Of a stretch of 64,000 nucleotides of DNA, positions 6,719 to 18,929 are shown piece after piece (the stretch's first letter is position 1; each line of letters starts with the position of its first letter). The position numbers and the translations under genes are program-made. The notes beneath the pieces are model-generated. The model made no database searches and was not told where the DNA came from. It saw only the letters and a program-made list of their open reading frames with translations. This DNA is from Escherichia coli (GTDB lineage: Bacteria > Pseudomonadota > Gammaproteobacteria > Enterobacterales > Enterobacteriaceae), in assembly GCF_046105845.1 (NCBI RefSeq), contig NZ_CP151004.1. One strand, 5' to 3'.

Positions 6719-7547
6719 GACGATGCCCTCCGCTGATATTCAGGAGACGGTGAATATGAAAATTAGCCTTATCCGCCAGACGAATACGTTCAGCCTGCAA
6801 GTTAAGAAGGGTTTCTACCAAAACCTGATGCGCCTGCGGATCCGAAAGAGTTACCTTGCGCAGAGCACGTAGTGCAGTTGTTACATAACTGAGTTTATGT
6901 AAGTCTTCATCATTCAGACGAGTGAGGGCTGGGACAGTAGCCATGATGGCAGCCTCCGATAACAGTGAATTACCTTCACCACCGGAAACGCCAATTTCGC
7001 TGGTGGTGAACTGAACGGGGTTGGCGTAACCGGCGTTATCGGAAACCGGCGCACCTTTCGGTGCCCCCGTCCAGCCCACCATAATTTGGGTGTGCACAGA
7101 CACAGACGATAAAAAAGACGCTGGCGCGTCATATATCGCCGATAACATTTCCAGGACGCCAATCCCGTCACCCGCTTTATAAGGTGCCTGAACAGTGTAA
7201 CGTCCCGGAATGGCAGAATCAATGTGCTGGTGGTCCTTCACACTCAACAAAATCACGCCTGAATTTCCACAAAGGACTAAAGCACTCATGCGGGTAGTCT
7301 TTGCGAAGATAGATAACGCGCTGTGTTTCTGGTTCCCAACGAATAACATGGACATAAAGCCCTCTTCCGTCACGAAACCAGCGGTTAAGTTCCCGCACAA
7401 CTCGCCCCCCACAGTCAGGTAAAGTTCTCTGTGGTTACTTACAGCCAGGTGATTTGGTAATCTGCATTCATGCCGTAACAACAGGTGTTCAGCGACACTG
7501 ACCACCAGCTGTTGCGACAAACGGTTATTTGCCGTTAAACTGTTCAT
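6711..7547 (-). CDS. Hypothetical phage protein (278 aa)
   Basis: ATGA overlap with the cII-like gene stop. I recognise no family. Confidence 0.6.
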   Translation of the reverse strand: MNSLTANNRLSQQLVVSVAEHLLLRHECRLPNHLAVSNHRELYLTVGGELCGNLTAGFVTEEGFMSMLFVGNQKHSALSIFAKTTRMSALVLCGNSGVILLSVKDHQHIDSAIPGRYTVQAPYKAGDGIGVLEMLSAIYDAPASFLSSVSVHTQIMVGWTGAPKGAPVSDNAGYANPVQFTTSEIGVSGGEGNSLLSEAAIMATVPALTRLNDEDLHKLSYVTTALRALRKVTLSDPQAHQVLVETLLNLQAERIRLADKANFHIHRLLNISGGHRHA

Positions 7548-8107
7548 GCGTTAGTTTCTCCACAGACACAAAACGCCACGACGCCCGGAGCTGCACACTC
7601 GCGGGCGTCACTCTTTTCTGGAGCGCAAAAGATTTTGTAGACCAGTGCTGCATGCTCTTGGAGCTTCGAAATTGACAGATACAACTCATCATTAATTGCT
7701 GTCTGCTCGTGTGGCTCCACGACCCCATCTTCGATTGCCGAACGAATCTGCTTTGAGTAATTCCCGATCTGTTCGATGACTTCCAGCAGGCGCTGGTTTA
7801 TATCGGCGTTCTCTACTTCCTCAATTTCAGGAAGCGATACGAACACCCCACCAGCAGACTGTGCGACAGCATCCGCAATGTAGTGAGTGTCAGCCGCGCG
7901 CTGTAAAACCATTGCCCATCCCAGCGGGAAAATCTGATCGCCATCGGCACGAAGGCGGTTAAATAATGCGTTCTCTGTTACATCCAGCCAGTCAGCTGCT
8001 TCAGCGTAACCACCCGGCAACGCTGCGATAGTTTTTCTGACAGCTTTCACGTACCACTCAGGCTGTTTTTCTACTTTCCAGTGATACTTACCCACGGTTA
8101 GCCTCAT
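7544..8107 (-). CDS. CII-type (phage 186 CP76-like) regulatory protein
   Basis: 187 aa, directly downstream of cro. ...LPGGYAEAADWLDVTENALFNRLRADGDQIFPLGWAMVLQRA... resembles the CP76/CII family (memory). Confidence 0.55.
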   Translation of the reverse strand: MRLTVGKYHWKVEKQPEWYVKAVRKTIAALPGGYAEAADWLDVTENALFNRLRADGDQIFPLGWAMVLQRAADTHYIADAVAQSAGGVFVSLPEIEEVENADINQRLLEVIEQIGNYSKQIRSAIEDGVVEPHEQTAINDELYLSISKLQEHAALVYKIFCAPEKSDARECAAPGVVAFCVCGETNA

Positions 8108-10200: not shown

Positions 10201-11025
10201 ATGTCTCAGAACTTAGACGCAACCGCAATTAATCAAATCCATGCCCTTATTTCTGCTCAGGGTGTTAATGAAATTATCAGTAAGATTGGTGCCGATGCTG
10301 TGGTATTGCCTGAGAATTTCCGCATTCATGATCTGGAAAAATTTAATTTAAATCGCTTCCGTTTCCGTGGTGCGCTTTCCACTGCCAGCATCGATGACTT
10401 TACCCGTTATTCTAAAGATCTTGCAGATGAAGGCACCCGCTGCTTTATCGATGCTGATAATATGCGTGCCGTCAGTGTACTTAACCTGGGTACTATTGAT
10501 GAACCAGGTCACGCAGATAACACCGCCACTCTCAAACTGAAAAAGACAGCACCGTTCTCTGCCCTGTTGTCTGTTAACGGCGAGCGTAACTCCCAGAAGT
10601 CACTGGCAGAATGGATTGAAGACTGGGCCGACTACCTTGTGGGCTTTGATGCTAATGGTGACGCTATTCAGGCAACAAAAGCGGCTGCGGCAGTCCGTAA
10701 AATCACGATTGAAGCAAACCAGACCGCTGATTTTGAAGATAATGACTTCAGCGGCAAACGCTCCCTGATGGAATCTGTCGAAGCGAAGACCAAAGACATT
10801 ATGCCAGTGGCATTTGAAATTAAATGCGTTCCGTTTGAAGGTCTGAAAGAACGTCCGTTTAAATTACGCCTCAGCATTATCACTGGCGATCGTCCTGTAC
10901 TGGTTCTGCGCATTATTCAGCTGGAAGCGGTGCAGGAAGATATGGCTAACGAATTTCGTGATCTGCTTGTTGAGAAATTCAAAGACAGCAAAGTAGAAAC
11001 CTTTATTGGTACTTTCACCGCCTGA
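10201..11025 (+). CDS. yfdQ: YfdQ-like (DUF2303) phage protein
   Basis: 274 aa, [21 protein letters not shown]... It has the same length and order as CPS-53 yfdQ (memory). The SD is GAGGA. Confidence 0.6.
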
Positions 11026-11152
11026 TTTCATTACTGCAAATGCCCCTGCGGGGGCATTTATGGAAACGTAATTAACTCAATAATCACCGGATGGTGAGGG
11101 CTTCCTTTTACCCAAACTCAGCGCGGTGCAGCGCATATACGTGGAGAACAAA

Positions 11153-11689
11153 ATGTCATTTATTAAAACTTTTTCCGGGAAGCATTTTTATTATGACAAG
11201 ATAAATAAAGACGACATCGTGATTAACGATATCGCGGTTTCCCTTTCAAATATCTGCCGCTTTGCCGGTCATCTTTCTCACTTCTACAGTGTCGCCCAAC
11301 ATGCGGTGCTTTGCAGCCAGCTGGTGCCGCAGGAATTTGCTTTTGAAGCGTTAATGCATGATGCAACAGAAGCGTATTGCCAGGATATTCCCGCTCCACT
11401 GAAACGCCTTCTTCCTGACTATAAACGGATGGAAGAAAAAATTGACGCCGTAATCCGTGAGAAATACGGGTTACCCCCAGTTATGAGTACGCCCGTGAAA
11501 TATGCCGATCTTATCATGCTGGCAACCGAACGCCGCGATCTCGGGCTTGATGATGGCTCTTTCTGGCCTGTACTGGAAGGCATCCCGGCAACAGAGATGT
11601 TCAACGTGATTCCACTGGCACCTAGCCATGCCTACGGGATGTTTATGGAACGTTTTAACGAGTTATCGGAGTTACGCAAATGCGCATGA
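11153..11689 (+). CDS. yfdR: HD-domain 5-prime-deoxynucleotidase YfdR
   Basis: 178 aa from ATG 11153, MSFIKTFSGKHFYYDKINKDD... HD-type residues are present (SVAQHAV...LMHDATEAY). It matches K-12 YfdR from memory. Confidence 0.7.
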   Translation: MSFIKTFSGKHFYYDKINKDDIVINDIAVSLSNICRFAGHLSHFYSVAQHAVLCSQLVPQEFAFEALMHDATEAYCQDIPAPLKRLLPDYKRMEEKIDAVIREKYGLPPVMSTPVKYADLIMLATERRDLGLDDGSFWPVLEGIPATEMFNVIPLAPSHAYGMFMERFNELSELRKCA

Positions 11690-12042
11690 ATGTTTTCGAA
11701 ATGGAAGGGTTTCTTCGCGGTAAATGTGTACCGCGAGATCTGAAAGTGAACGAAACAAATGCTGAGTACCTGGTACGTAAATTCGACGCGCTTGAAGCTA
11801 AATGTGCGGCACTGGAAAACAAAATAATACCAGTGTCAGCTGAACTGCCACCAGCAAATGAAAGTGTTCTGTTATTTGATGCTAACGGAGAAGGCTGGCT
11901 GATTGGCTGGCGTTCTCTCTGGTACACCTGGGGACAAAAAGAAACCGGAGAATGGCAGTGGACATTTCAGGTCGGGGACCTTGAAAACTTCAATATCACT
12001 CACTGGGCAGTAATGCCAAAAGCGCCGGAGGCTGGAGCATAA
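11680..12042 (+). CDS. yfdS: YfdS-like DUF551 protein
   Basis: 120 aa. The C-terminus ...GWLIGWRSLWYTWGQ...ITHWAVMPKAPE is DUF551-like. It overlaps the yfdR stop. Confidence 0.55.
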   Translation: MRMNVFEMEGFLRGKCVPRDLKVNETNAEYLVRKFDALEAKCAALENKIIPVSAELPPANESVLLFDANGEGWLIGWRSLWYTWGQKETGEWQWTFQVGDLENFNITHWAVMPKAPEAGA

Positions 12043-12662
12043 TGACCACATTTACCAATAAAGAACTGATTAAAGAAATCAAAGAACGAATCAGCAGCCT
12101 AGAGGTTCGAGACGATATTGAGCGCCGTGCTTATGAAATTGCTCTGGCATCGCTAGAAGAGGAGCCGGTGGCATGGCTGCATTCAGAAAATGGCTTAGGT
12201 ATTCCGGCAATAACGAGGAGTAAAAACATTGCTGACAGTTGGTTATCAAAGGGCTGGTATGTTCAGCCGCTATATATAGCCAAGCCAGTGCCGGTGGTGC
12301 CAGATGCTCGTCCGTCTTTAAATAATGGCATAGTCGGCTTTGATGAAGGCTGGAACGCCTGCCGCGCCGCCATGCTTAATGGTGCCGAACCTGTAAGCCA
12401 GACTTACAAGTTGAACGAGCTGTCGGGCAACTCTCCGGTAACTCCGGATGGTTGGATAAGCTGTAGTGAGCGAATGCCGAACGATAAACAGTATGTTTGG
12501 TGTTGGGGTAAGTCTTACGGCTGGACTGAGTACGATACCTTCGAAGGGTATTACGATTGTTCGAGAAACAAATGGTGGGCAGTTACTGACAATGGGGAAG
12601 AACCGGCATCGAAAGTAACCCACTGGATGCCGCTACCGGAGCCGCCGCAGGAGGTGAAGTAA
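12042..12662 (+). CDS. DUF551 domain phage protein (206 aa)
   Basis: The C-terminus ...DGWISCSERMPNDKQYVWCWGKS...VTHWMPLPEPP is the DUF551 pattern. ATGA-type coupling to both neighbours. Confidence 0.6.
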   Translation: MTTFTNKELIKEIKERISSLEVRDDIERRAYEIALASLEEEPVAWLHSENGLGIPAITRSKNIADSWLSKGWYVQPLYIAKPVPVVPDARPSLNNGIVGFDEGWNACRAAMLNGAEPVSQTYKLNELSGNSPVTPDGWISCSERMPNDKQYVWCWGKSYGWTEYDTFEGYYDCSRNKWWAVTDNGEEPASKVTHWMPLPEPPQEVK

Positions 12663-12856
12663 TGAACAACTTAATGACAACTAAACAAGTCGCCGATTTC
12701 TGTGGTGTTTCAGTATCGACAGTTCTTCGCTGGAACAGCGTAAACAGGAGAACTGGCCAGAAATACAGGCCTGACTTTCCAGATCCTGATATTAAATCCT
12801 GCCCAAATAAATGGGCATCACACAAGATTTACAGATTTGCGGGAGTGATTGATTAA
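12662..12856 (+). CDS. Excisionase-type small HTH protein
   Basis: 64 aa. MTTKQVADFCGVSVSTVLRWNS is an HTH_17/excisionase-like helix-turn-helix. It is the last gene of the early-left operon, near int. Confidence 0.55.
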   Translation: MNNLMTTKQVADFCGVSVSTVLRWNSVNRRTGQKYRPDFPDPDIKSCPNKWASHKIYRFAGVID

Positions 12857-13138
12857 TATGTATTAGCTTAGATGTGAGCTGACACATCTATGATTAGATG
12901 CCAAACCAAATCTGAGCGTCCACTCTTTAACAAGAGCGGACGTTACCAATGACCATATGACATGAATCGATAAGATCAAAACATTATCGCCAAGAAATGT
13001 CATACCATTGATACAAATAAAATTGATTACCCCCTTACTCTTGTTGAAAAGTTAGTCGTAGAGTACCTATCGCAATGTAATCAGCTTTAATCATCTGAAA
13101 ATTACTCCTTAAAAATTAGCTTTTATATACTGAACAAA

Positions 13139-13858
13139 TTAAATCTCTGTTTCTTTTCCTGTTCGGCTCAACCAATACTCCATTGTTTGAGTATGAATCT
13201 TTTCAGCGTATATTTTATCAATTAATTTATCTCGTTTTTCTTTAATGACTTTACGCAGTGAATCATATAACATAAAAAAACGTTCATCATCTTCCTCATT
13301 ATTACCATAATTTATTTGATTGAGTTCTGAAAAAATATGATAGCACCTTTTTTTCTTGGTCCCCGGCAATATTAAAACCAAGCCACATTGATCATATTCA
13401 AATTCACCTTTATGGGCAGCAAAGTTATGTCTAACATTCATAATAGAATCATGTAAATCTCTGTATTTTTCTGGCACATGCTTTCTCTGCAATGTGAATC
13501 GACGCCCTTTCGCCTCTGTAAAACACTTACCGTAAGTAACAACTTTTGATATAAATAAAGACTTTAATATTAGATTCTTTTCTAAATCAGGATAAATAAA
13601 GTGTTGTTCTCTATTAATGTTATTACAAATGTTTTTTATTATATTCTCCCAACCAATAACATTCCGAAGATCTTTATCCAGCAACTGTAAGGCCACATAT
13701 TGTTCTACAAAGCGGCCTTTTAAAGGTATTCGTGGTAATATTACACCTTTCTGCTTATAAACTCTTTCTATCGTATTATCTGGATATTGGATCTTCCTTA
13801 TTTCTATTCCGTCTTCTTCTGATACCCTTACTAATGGTTCATTTTTTAACTTTGACAT
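13139..13858 (-). CDS. AT-rich accessory gene (239 aa) with HEPN-like R-x4-A-H motif
   Basis: AAGAGGG SD. It is visibly more AT-rich than the rest of the prophage. The NVRHNFAAHKG motif is at aa 141-151 (core R143-H149, nt 13412-13432). It sits between xis and int. Confidence 0.75.
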   Translation of the reverse strand: MSKLKNEPLVRVSEEDGIEIRKIQYPDNTIERVYKQKGVILPRIPLKGRFVEQYVALQLLDKDLRNVIGWENIIKNICNNINREQHFIYPDLEKNLILKSLFISKVVTYGKCFTEAKGRRFTLQRKHVPEKYRDLHDSIMNVRHNFAAHKGEFEYDQCGLVLILPGTKKKRCYHIFSELNQINYGNNEEDDERFFMLYDSLRKVIKEKRDKLIDKIYAEKIHTQTMEYWLSRTGKETEI

Positions 13859-14143
13859 GTTAACCCTCTTAAATAAAAAACTAACTTTATCCAGATAGTG
13901 TCCGTTAAGAAGTTTTCGTTACAACTAAGTTTCTAGGTAAATCATGAATCAACCTATAGTATCAAAAACATTTGGTGGTAAACATCTGCATTTATCAAAT
14001 AGCAGGAGCGATTTAGGGGCATAGGGATAGTGATGATATCTATACCCGTGCCCTCTTATGTCAACACAATGGCGTAAACTTAACGCTCACATCTCGCTCA
14101 AAGTGTGCTAGGAGATTTGGTTATGTTCAGGTGATACAAACCG

Positions 14144-15367
14144 TCAGTTTGAATCAGAGATAGTACAATTAACAATCGATTCAACCCTCTTCCACCATGC
14201 CAGGTAAGCTTTACGCTGTTCTTCTAGATAATCGCTCTTATCATAAACTTGCCATACCCCTGGCAGCTTATGACCAAGCATAATTTCTGCGATATGAGGC
14301 GCAGTAAGATCAGAAAAATTTGTTCGTGCTGTCCGTCTCAAGTCATGAAGAGACCAATGAGGGAATTGATATCCTAAACGCCGCCACGCGTACTGCATTA
14401 AATTGTAAGGCAGCGACTGTAATGATGTCCTACCGACTGGCTCCCTGCTTCCTTCCTTAGTAAAAAGCATATCGGAACCGTTGTTCATAGAGATAACGTA
14501 TTTTATAAGCTCTTCAACCGGTTCAATAATGGGCCGCTTTAGCGGTTCGCCTGTTATGTCCCCTGTCTTATGTCGTTCAGGTGGTACAGTCCATACCTTA
14601 TTTATGAAATCAAAATCACCCACCCTAGCAGTAATTAGCTCCGAACTACGGCAACCAAAATGCAGTAATAGTTTAATGAAGGCCCGGTATTTGGGAACCA
14701 TTCTAGAGCCATCGATCGCAGCATAAAGAATTTTAATTTCATCGTGTGTCAGAAACCGTTTCTTCTGACCTTTACGGATATCCATATCTTTACCCGTGAT
14801 ATCCGACAGCGGGCGAGTTTCAATAAGCTTTCTCTTATACGCCCAGACATGGGCCTGCTTTGCGTTAATTAGCAATCGGTCTGCTATTGCTGGAGTCTTA
14901 GTGCTAAGAGGCTCCAGGACTTCTAACCAATCATGCAATGTAGCTGCATCGTGAGGGATATTCCCGATTTTAGAGAACAGGTGCAGCTCAAACGAGCGGA
15001 GTATCTGTTCAGAACCCTTTTTATTTTTTACACAATATGCTTCATACCAGGCACGGATCACAGACTCTACCGTCATGGCTTCAGTAGCTTTTCGTTTTTC
15101 AGCCTGCTTGACCAATCGTGGATTACGGTTTGACTCGAGTTCACCACGGAGACGGATAACTTCTTCTCTGGCCTCTTTTAATCCAGTTGCCGGGTAAGTT
15201 CCGATATCAAGACGCTCACCTTTCCCTGCCCATTGATAACGATATTGAAACACTACGCGACCTTTCGGTGATACTCTGACAGACAGACCATCACGATCGG
15301 ATTTAACCAAAACCTTATCACGTTCCTTTCCAACGACTGAACGCAACCACGCATCAGACAGCGCCAT
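14144..15367 (-). CDS. int: Tyrosine integrase (P4/CP4-57 type, DUF4102 N-terminal arm-binding domain)
   Basis: 407 aa. N-terminus ...DGLSVRVSPKGRVVFQYRYQWAGKGERLDIGTYP. C-terminal catalytic context ...HFGCRSSEL...WSLHDLRRTARTNF...LGHKLPGVWQVYD (R..HxxR..Y). Confidence 0.9.
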   Translation of the reverse strand: MALSDAWLRSVVGKERDKVLVKSDRDGLSVRVSPKGRVVFQYRYQWAGKGERLDIGTYPATGLKEAREEVIRLRGELESNRNPRLVKQAEKRKATEAMTVESVIRAWYEAYCVKNKKGSEQILRSFELHLFSKIGNIPHDAATLHDWLEVLEPLSTKTPAIADRLLINAKQAHVWAYKRKLIETRPLSDITGKDMDIRKGQKKRFLTHDEIKILYAAIDGSRMVPKYRAFIKLLLHFGCRSSELITARVGDFDFINKVWTVPPERHKTGDITGEPLKRPIIEPVEELIKYVISMNNGSDMLFTKEGSREPVGRTSLQSLPYNLMQYAWRRLGYQFPHWSLHDLRRTARTNFSDLTAPHIAEIMLGHKLPGVWQVYDKSDYLEEQRKAYLAWWKRVESIVNCTISDSN

Positions 15368-15596
15368 TACTCACCTTGTACAAATCGCAAAACACCTCTG
15401 CTGCTTTGTACATTATGTACAAGCATATGTACAGATTTTTGATGAAAGCAACCTGATCGATTTAAAGTTACATGAAAGAATTTTCAATTAAAGAAGCCAC
15501 ATAACTATATGTATTTAAATGAGTTATATAACCAGACCTCAATTAACTGAAAGGATTTTGAAAGAGTAAAAGAGCTTTAATTTGGGATTAATTATT

Positions 15597-15662
15597 GGGG
15601 TGAGAAATAATGGCAAAAGTGCGGCGCTTCGCCACCTCTTGCAAATAAGGAGACAACGTCAT
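15597..15662 (-). pseudogene. prfC: prfC 5-prime stub (codons 1-22) cut by the prophage junction
   Basis: Reverse complement reads ATG ACG TTG TCT CCT TAT ... = [22 protein letters not shown], the RF3 N-terminus just before its P-loop (HPDAGKT). It then diverges into AT-rich phage DNA (..NN stop at 15588). Confidence 0.8.
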
Positions 15663-15752: not shown

Positions 15753-16430
15753 TCAGTGTTTACACAGGAGCTGCTCCAGTTCGTGCAACGAAGAAACTGT
15801 CCAGGTGGGCGCGATGCCTTCTGGTTGCTCGCGATTGTGCGCATTCAGCCAGCAGGTCGCAAGCCCGGCGTTGATGCCACCGAGAATATCGGACTCGGCA
15901 GTGTCGCCAACCATCAGCACGCGTGAACGGTCAGGATTGCCCGCCTGTTCCAGCGCATAATCGAAAATTTTCTTATTCGGTTTGGCAACGCCAACTTCTT
16001 CGGAAATCACCAGCAAATCGAAATAATCACGCAGGCCCGTGCGTTCCAGACGCACTTGCTGCAAAGCGCTAAAGCCGTTGGTGATGATGCCAATTTTAGC
16101 ATTGCCACGAATGGCGTTAAGCAGAGAAACCGCGCCCGGCAGCGGCGTACAGATTTCCGCCATCGCATTAATAAAGGCTTCGTTGAGTTTACCCGGCTCG
16201 ACGTTCAGCCGTTCGGCCCAGCTCTCAAACCGCCCGTGCTGAAGCTGTAATGAAGTGATCGCGCCGTTTTGATAATCCACCCACAGTGGCTTGTTAACGG
16301 CCTGATAGTCCTGAAAATCTTCAGCGGTAAAGGTGACGCTGTAATCAAGAAACATCCGCTGCAGGCCGGTGAATGAGTCAAAGGTAAACAGCGTTTCATC
16401 GGCATCAAAGAAAATCCAGTCCCACTTCAT
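15753..16430 (-). CDS. yjjG: HAD-family pyrimidine 5-prime-nucleotidase YjjG
   Basis: 225 aa, [15 protein letters not shown]... (HAD motif I DxDxT). Synteny with rimI and holD. Confidence 0.9.
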
Positions 16431-18606: not shown

Positions 18607-18693
18607 GCGAAGGTGGCGGAATTGGTAGACGCGCTAGCTTCAGGTGTTAGTGTCCTTACGGACGTGGGGGTTCAAGTCCCCCCCCTCGCACCA
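18607..18693 (+). tRNA. leuV: tRNA-Leu (CAG), copy 1
   Basis: 87 nt, GCGAAGGTGGCGGAATTGGTAGAC...TTCAAGTCCCCCCCTCGCACCA. The anticodon loop TTCAGGT gives CAG. It has a long variable arm and an encoded CCA. Confidence 0.95.
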
Positions 18694-18721
18694 AAAACCA
18701 CGTTGATATTGCTCGCACTGG

Positions 18722-18808
18722 GCGAAGGTGGCGGAATTGGTAGACGCGCTAGCTTCAGGTGTTAGTGTTCTTACGGACGTGGGGGTTCAAGTCCCCCCCC
18801 TCGCACCA
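18722..18808 (+). tRNA. leuP: tRNA-Leu (CAG), copy 2 (one variable-arm C to T difference at 18769)
   Basis: The same 87-nt sequence except GTGTTC instead of GTGTCC in the extra arm, which turns a C-G pair into a U-G pair. Confidence 0.95.
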
Positions 18809-18842
18809 AACGAGGCGATATCAAAAAAAGTAAGATGACTGT

Positions 18843-18929
18843 GCGAAGGTGGCGGAATTGGTAGACGCGCTAGCTTCAGGTGTTAGTGTCCTTACGGACG
18901 TGGGGGTTCAAGTCCCCCCCCTCGCACCA
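18843..18929 (+). tRNA. leuQ: tRNA-Leu (CAG), copy 3
   Basis: Identical to copy 1. Confidence 0.95.

Follow-up and report, generated by a model that had tools for sequence, protein, structure and literature searches.

HEPN proteins are built on a four-helical up-down bundle, with the HEPN motif at the end of helix 3, a residue after the motif arginine that is 'mostly N, D or H', and a conserved acid placed in helix 2 as Ex3[KR] near the motif; in Csx1 a beta-hairpin comes after the motif (Anantharaman et al. 2013, PMC3710099). A partner-less solo HEPN abortive-infection protein, HepS (STM14_3211), is encoded by Gifsy-1, a prophage of Salmonella (Sargen et al., Nature 2026, PMC13043305; PDB 9OIJ/9OIK). 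HepS stays inactive until phage tail-tip proteins trigger it, whereupon it cuts tRNAs in their anticodon loops, with no partner for either sensing or cleavage (PMC13043305). Here we describe an open reading frame (ORF) encoding 239 amino acids (aa) at 13139-13858, on the minus strand of a 64,000-nucleotide (nt) stretch of Escherichia coli DNA (RefSeq assembly GCF_046105845.1, contig NZ_CP151004.1), referred to below as the window. The ORF lies beside the integrase gene int of a lambdoid (Glaedevirus 2H10-type) prophage, and an earlier note on this DNA had read it as a HEPN-like candidate for abortive infection. From the gene and its composition, the conservation of its motif, the placement of that motif in a predicted fold, the mobility of the gene on its own and the hotspot in which it sits, we infer an RNase activity and an anti-phage function. 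The product would be a stand-alone HEPN-like RNase acting as a lysogen-protecting abortive-infection protein, a combined statement on which we are evenly divided.

The R143-H149 motif and the predicted fold

The ORF, present in the ORF list and in RefSeq (WP_000040219.1, 'hypothetical protein'), starts with ATG, and a Shine-Dalgarno-like AAGAGGG at 13864-13870 is separated from this codon by 5 nt. Its protein corresponds to PHROG 8440 (phrog_8440), a family of unknown function (E=1.6e-144). Homologues found by a word-indexed search formed 25 clusters from Enterobacterales, and an exhaustive profile search gave 925 representative clusters (50% identity) at E<=1e-3, with 399 at E<=1e-10. Complete members, with few exceptions, have a length of 220-260 aa and match from end to end. 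The idea of a spurious ORF was rejected on the basis of these 925 homologous clusters, the strong Shine-Dalgarno sequence and the codon differences from a Cronobacter homologue, of which 52 are synonymous and 36 non-synonymous.

The earlier note had pointed to NVRHNFAAHKG, with R143-H149 at nt 13412-13432, and both the sequence and the coordinates are exact. The segment RHNFAAH (13412-13432, minus strand; R143 at 13430-13432 and H149 at 13412-13414) is, from the alignment of 108 members and the AlphaFold model, a candidate HEPN Rx5H catalytic motif. The occurrence of the pattern as such counts for little, as Rx4-6H arises in 78% of composition-preserving shuffles of the ORF protein, and a second match in the protein, R120-H127, is not conserved. 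The R143-H149 motif is meaningful because it is conserved across the family and not because Rx4-6H occurs. No other 9-residue window of the family is as conserved as RHNFAAHKG, whose mean column identity is 0.77 versus a family mean of 0.26 (26% over the 108-member alignment). Among these 108 divergent members R143 is found in 108, A148 in 103, H149 in 107 and G151 in 105, and residue 144 varies between H (61 members), N (46) and D (1), so that a polar residue of the HEPN type directly follows the motif arginine in 108/108. Besides R143, the invariant residues are D63, Y109, R119 and H136, and W70, K111, F113, G118, A148, H149 (107/108), G151 and L197 are nearly so. Those of the invariant residues that are polar suggest an active site more than an interface.

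AlphaFold2 was run twice, with 23 sequences (predicted local distance difference test score, pLDDT, 86.8) and with 108 sequences (pLDDT 93.8; predicted template modelling score, pTM, 0.86), and both models have the same topology, a four-helix up-down bundle. The predicted bundle core comprises residues 49-221 (13196-13714, minus strand), in which AlphaFold2 with DSSP assigns helix 1 to residues 49-79, helix 2 to residues 92-111, helix 3 to residues 130-147 and helix 4 to residues 188-221, with a non-helical insert between helices 2 and 3 (residues 112-129) that holds the invariant R119. R143 is placed in the last turn of model helix 3, and H149 just beyond it, at the start of a loop. The AlphaFold2 model thus agrees with the HEPN description in its bundle of two alpha-hairpins, in the position of the motif where helix 3 ends and in the insert between helices 2 and 3. 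DSSP further assigns, in both models, a beta-hairpin insert directly after the motif (residues 157-180; 13319-13390, minus strand) and an N-terminal three-stranded beta-sheet (residues 9-36; 13751-13834, minus strand; block pLDDT 93-98), for which we propose a role in sensing or oligomerisation.

Several results weigh against the HEPN RNase interpretation. Foldseek searches of PDB and BFVD returned no match at E<=0.001, and profile searches of PDB chain sequences gave nothing relevant at E<=10. Pfam had no match for 108/108 divergent relatives. In hhalign, the family aligned to a 40-sequence DUF4145 (HEPN clan) alignment with a probability of 0.2%, which is not significant. The acidic motif E/D61-x3-R65, which includes the invariant D63, lies in model helix 1, although the HEPN literature places it in helix 2. 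Finally, a consensus promoter scan found no strong sigma-70 promoter for the ORF on its strand.

The remaining database searches bear on the same question. The rows of the structure/profile search comprise 7ae2_A (HepT toxin; 8.4 and 4), 3jrt_A (integron-cassette HEPN; 8.1 and 9), 1ylm_B (YutE; 7.6 and 23) and 5yep_B (SO_3166; 7.0 and 48). Profile matches of PDB sequences to bacterioferritin, RFC and P450 were set aside as chance. Cropping the hhalign input to the cores and relaxing its maximum-accuracy (MAC) setting affected how long the DUF4145 alignment was and left its significance unchanged; in the relaxed alignment NFAAH lies over NDAAH, the helices are collinear and the beta-hairpin is skipped as an insertion. 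The earlier note had suggested an AbiU2/AbiD-F style of family and a check by Pfam and PADLOC for HEPN or defence families. No such membership was found: the ORF protein, the 108 relatives and the family consensus had no match above threshold to the models of the AbiU2, AIPR and Abi_2 (AbiD/F) families (PF18734, PF10592 and PF07751), and no PADLOC Abi model gave a match. The sole trace is a weak one: exactly over the motif region, the family consensus aligns locally with Pfam HEPN_AbiU2 (E=0.11, 12.4 bits; cut-off 26.8). There was no significant sequence or profile match to HEPN clan CL0291. The ORF protein had nothing usable in Pfam, PADLOC (v2.0.0) or NCBIfam, a Tcp10_C match (E=0.01) being dismissed as noise, and PADLOC-DB v2.0.0 gave nothing credible for the ORF protein, 6-7 divergent relatives or the family consensus, only values of E=0.011-0.045 to unrelated models.

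The claim of a HEPN-like protein is supported by the predicted fold and the placement of the motif, and not by any significant sequence, profile or Foldseek link to HEPN families. At the level of prediction, both fold and motif correspond to HEPN; no named HEPN family could be shown to be homologous. We consider that the ORF protein probably belongs to the HEPN superfamily. The likeness could also be convergent. The product would then be a helical-bundle accessory protein without catalysis (for instance a regulator or a factor for exclusion or anti-defence), its conserved arginine and histidine binding a ligand or partner. Against this stand four points in which the ORF protein accords with the HEPN description: where the motif lies, the polar residue after the arginine, the insert that separates helices 2 and 3, and the topology of the bundle. 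In addition, the invariant polar residues are active-site-like, neither a transmembrane segment nor a DNA-binding domain is predicted in the protein, and the family is also found outside phages. An accessory protein of this kind therefore seems unlikely to us, though it deserves some weight.

A single-gene cargo beside the integrase

The ORF fills a variable cargo slot at 12950-14137, whose left border falls at ~12926-12950 and whose right border falls at ~14093-14162, as judged from homology breakpoints against five sister prophages. The suggestion that the gene is cargo at an int-proximal hotspot is supported by this sharply bounded slot and by the other cargo that it holds in the five sister prophages. 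In sister prophages at the same yjjG site the slot carries a 566-aa AbiU/AIPR protein (PADLOC AbiU, E=2.6e-111) or, alternatively, a 451-aa DUF6602 protein with NucC/PD-DExK matches. All slot genes of the sister prophages are AT-rich (GC 0.32-0.37). Three further slot-mates had no Pfam or PADLOC match and encode 331 aa (locus L026, 2925-3920, plus strand), 428 aa (L027, 2152-3438, plus strand) and 413 aa (L028, 1998-3239, minus strand). Because the same slot elsewhere carries AbiU or a NucC-like DUF6602 nuclease, we regard these three as candidate defence genes.

The description of a 239-codon AT-rich gene running against the early-left operon, with AT-rich flanks of ~280 base pairs (bp), was accurate. 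The GC content of the ORF is 0.3125, versus 0.467 in the early-left operon (10201-12856), 0.446 in int and 0.488 in the whole window. The flanks, without credible ORFs, extend over 12857-13138 (282 nt, GC 0.34) and 13859-14143 (285 nt, GC 0.375). The ORF is convergent with the plus-strand early-left operon, which ends at 12856, and one may speculate that convergent early-left transcription could silence it during the lytic cycle of its own prophage. The earlier note had also placed the gene between xis and int. The position is right. The note leaves out that int shares the minus strand with the ORF and lies upstream of the ORF, and the name 'xis' is itself an inference.

The gene moves alone. 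DNA similarity of 81% to a Cronobacter prophage is limited to 14015-13131, which takes in the ORF with 157 nt before it and 8 nt after it, and the Cronobacter gene follows umuDC at the tail-fibre end, in a neighbourhood unrelated to that in the window. The mobile module at 13131-14015 is therefore 885 bp long and includes native upstream DNA. From this homology, the 157 nt that travel with the gene (13859-14015, minus strand) are presumed to contain its promoter and 5' untranslated region, and a possible extended -10 element, TGaTACTAT, lies within them at 13956-13964. A consensus terminator scan found no terminator on either side of the ORF. In the reading that we favour, the ORF and its ~157 nt of upstream DNA form a self-contained cargo in a defence hotspot by int.

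The gene is co-oriented with int and directly downstream of it, in the window as in three P2/186-like prophages (two of which have it overlapping the int stop codon), and this would also fit an integrase accessory factor or recombination-directionality factor co-expressed with int. Integrases, however, make up only 2 of the 124 neighbouring genes in other genomes, and relatives, close as well as distant, occupy positions following umuDC, separating lysis from terminase genes, within a filamentous phage or on integron cassettes. Furthermore, the gene is missing from about 90% of the prophages that have this integrase (~10% carry it). The neighbourhoods are too diverse for such a factor, and we rejected this explanation as very improbable.

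In agreement with the earlier note, no partner antitoxin was evident. Neither the module nor the cargo slot contains a partner ORF, and there is no MNT nucleotidyltransferase antitoxin gene beside the ORF, as would be expected of a HEPN-MNT toxin-antitoxin system. Scans of 12600-14400 for Rfam families, tandem repeats and inverted repeats found no RNA antitoxin, riboswitch, repeat array or notable hairpin. Among the 124 flanking genes at 38 of 40 loci in other genomes, no Pfam family occurred more than 2 times and no PADLOC family more than 3 times, and the gene accordingly has no recurrent neighbour.

The absence of a partner bears on another explanation, that the protein is a HEPN-type RNase toxin serving mobile-element stabilisation or stress dormancy (cassette or prophage addiction) and not phage defence. 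The same fold and motif evidence would apply to it, that role was proposed for integron-cassette HEPN proteins (Anantharaman 2013), and the family occupies integron cassettes and prophage ends, common places for toxin-antitoxin systems. On the other hand, the gene comes with no antitoxin gene, no antisense-RNA family and no repeat array, its mobile unit being the ORF and 157 nt, and an unopposed constitutive toxin would not persist. The AbiU protein and NucC-like nuclease among the slot-mates, together with the defence systems that neighbour relatives, also point to defence. We judge an addiction or dormancy toxin to be quite unlikely.

Distribution of the family and proposed function

A scan of species-representative genomes, made with a 14-sequence alignment, found the 40 loci referred to above, mostly in Gamma- and Betaproteobacteria, with Yersinia, Pseudomonas, Vibrio, Pseudoalteromonas, Methylomonas, Janthinobacterium and Massilia among the genera. 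Every named member of the family is annotated as 'hypothetical protein', and a literature search on accession WP_000040219.1 found no paper. Pfam, NCBIfam and PADLOC v2 have no entry for the family; a solo HEPN abortive-infection gene on a prophage is an already known kind.

Relatives are found on several kinds of mobile element. In Photobacterium sp. J15 the homologue (7001-7702) is a single-ORF cassette in a chromosomal integron array, with attC-like repeats of 106 nt at 6885-6990 and 7683-7788 around it and 16-18 repeats in 14.7 kb. The array (L007, 1-14702) has nearby cassettes with DUF2971, DUF2726, FRG, OGG, SRA-HNH and CyanoTRADDas_TM, many of these domains being defence-associated. Homologues in Vibrio alginolyticus sit among small co-oriented ORFs in a cassette-array-like arrangement, and a crude self-BLAST detected comparable repeat arrays at the Vibrio alginolyticus loci (L012-L014) and at ~7 of the 40 genome loci. 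According to recent literature, integron cassettes are rich in single-gene defence systems, one of them with an AbiU2-type HEPN domain.

Relatives at the end of P2/186-like prophages of Enterobacter, Citrobacter and Yersinia directly follow int in the same orientation; those of Enterobacter and Yersinia overlap its stop codon, and that of Citrobacter lies 35 nt past it. In the Yersinia 186-type prophage the CI repressor gene precedes int, and the order CI, int, relative is compatible with expression in the lysogen. In Yersinia sp. HM-2024 a DUF4435/AriB-like (PARIS) gene (L029, 1958-2833, plus strand) lies just upstream of int and the relative directly after it, so that the integrase of this 186-like prophage is flanked by two candidate defence genes. 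Another relative is at a prophage end adjoining an icd fragment, and another between the lysis cassette and HNH/terminase genes of a plasmid-borne lambdoid prophage. The filamentous Vibrio phage 10N.286.54.E4_PE002 (Tubulavirales) encodes a 245-aa relative with 28% identity after gene I/zot (L071, 4902-5639, plus strand); its depositor noted it as 'endonuclease', and no supporting domain was found. Relatives adjoin CBASS and TacAT at one setting, and a SMODS protein and DUF6602 at another. Strong PADLOC matches beside relatives include HEC-03A/B, Lamassu LmuB/C, NsnB, PD-T4-6, MADS components, MkoA and AriB.

Within E. coli, the ORF is present in 70 of 5426 complete genomes (~1.3%) and lies in the same prophage adjoining yjjG in all 3 genomes looked at, the window included. 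The same integrase type occurs in 697-699 of the 5426 (~13%). Escherichia phage 2H10 (Glaedevirus) matches the locus with 100% identity and has the gene annotated as hypothetical. E. coli GPEC1222 (NZ_CM142784.1) carries an IS2 element inside the 11700-15400 region, its prophage being identical in other respects.

In the mechanism that we propose for lysogen protection, the ORF protein would be made in the lysogen and held as an inactive oligomer. Infection by another phage would activate it, possibly via the N-terminal beta-sheet and the beta-hairpin, and two R143/H149 motifs would meet where the subunits of a dimer join, in the manner of other HEPN enzymes. The active protein would then cut cellular RNA, most plausibly tRNA, and the infection would be aborted. 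Going further, the family may be a widespread stand-alone sensor-effector and a new defence system, possibly with a new substrate or trigger. It would have an active site extending beyond the HEPN pair (D63, Y109, K111, R119 and H136 around R143/H149) and its own beta-sheet phage sensor, and its at least 925 clusters would have been spread by integron cassettes and by lambdoid, P2/186-like and filamentous phages. This extension is tentative, and on balance we doubt it.

If the abortive-infection reading is true, the gene would define a new single-gene family in the solo-HEPN abortive-infection class, a class that is itself recent (HepS, 2026), and a cleanly bounded defence hotspot would lie by int in a prophage family found in about one of every eight complete E. 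coli genomes (the ~13% above). The three further unannotated slot genes would then become immediate candidates for new defence systems. Relatives are in any case present in many Gamma- and Betaproteobacteria, on at least 5 kinds of mobile-element cargo site.

The other features of the prophage are as follows. The tyrosine integrase gene (14144-15367, minus strand) encodes a protein with Pfam matches to Phage_integrase, Arm-DNA-bind_3 and Phage_int_M, and the prophage end abuts the host gene yjjG (15753-16430). In the gap between int and yjjG, a 69-nt pseudogene at 15594-15662 (minus strand), annotated in RefSeq as 'incomplete hypothetical protein', is present in every sister genome examined and is probably an attachment-site remnant or duplication. 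Three tandem tRNA-Leu(CAG) genes lie at 18607-18929 (plus strand), in host DNA downstream of the junction with the prophage. On the other side of the slot, the last early-left gene (12662-12856, plus strand) encodes a 64-aa helix-turn-helix (HTH) protein, a putative excisionase, with a sub-threshold HTH_17 match of 22.5 bits (cut-off 27). In phage 2H10 this ORF is annotated 'Phage protein'; it has no PGAP annotation in the RefSeq genomes examined, and its HTH_17/MerR matches are sub-threshold. The preceding part of the early-left operon (10201-12662, plus strand) encodes YfdQ/DUF2303, a YfdR-like HD 5'-deoxynucleotidase and two DUF551 proteins. These genes are common to the K-12 yfdP-yfdT prophage genes, and the 5' part of the query matches ~3800 of the 5426 E. 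coli genomes.

Comparison with known systems

Besides HepS, four described groups are the closest known to the ORF protein. Vpc_cass2 (PDB 3jrt) is an integron-cassette HEPN protein, but it showed no sequence or profile similarity to the ORF protein, is shorter (166 residues) and lacks beta elements. HepT of the HepT/MntA pair (PDB 7ae2, 5yep) needs an adjacent MNT antitoxin, whereas the ORF family has no such gene. DUF4145 (PF13643) shares the N-x-A-A-H core (GNDAAH as compared with RHNFAAH) and occurs in the same Vibrio cassette arrays as relatives of the ORF, although the profile-profile probability is the 0.2% given above. HEPN_AbiU2 (PF18734) is the sole HEPN-clan model that shows at all, via the family consensus over the motif; no individual family member matches it, and the PADLOC AbiU model does not match either. 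The AbiU/AIPR gene that fills the identical slot in sister prophages is thus a positional analogue of the ORF, and not a demonstrated homologue.

The closest comparison is with HepS. The ORF protein differs from it in the spacing and position of the motif, in genomic location and apparently in sequence, profile searches of all PDB chains having given no relevant match at E<=10. Like HepS, it is encoded by a single prophage gene, is shorter than 250 aa, has an Rx4-6H motif and comes with no partner or antitoxin. HepS sits in the accessory-gene region of a lambdoid prophage, and it offers for the ORF protein the model of a resting oligomer that is activated by a phage protein.
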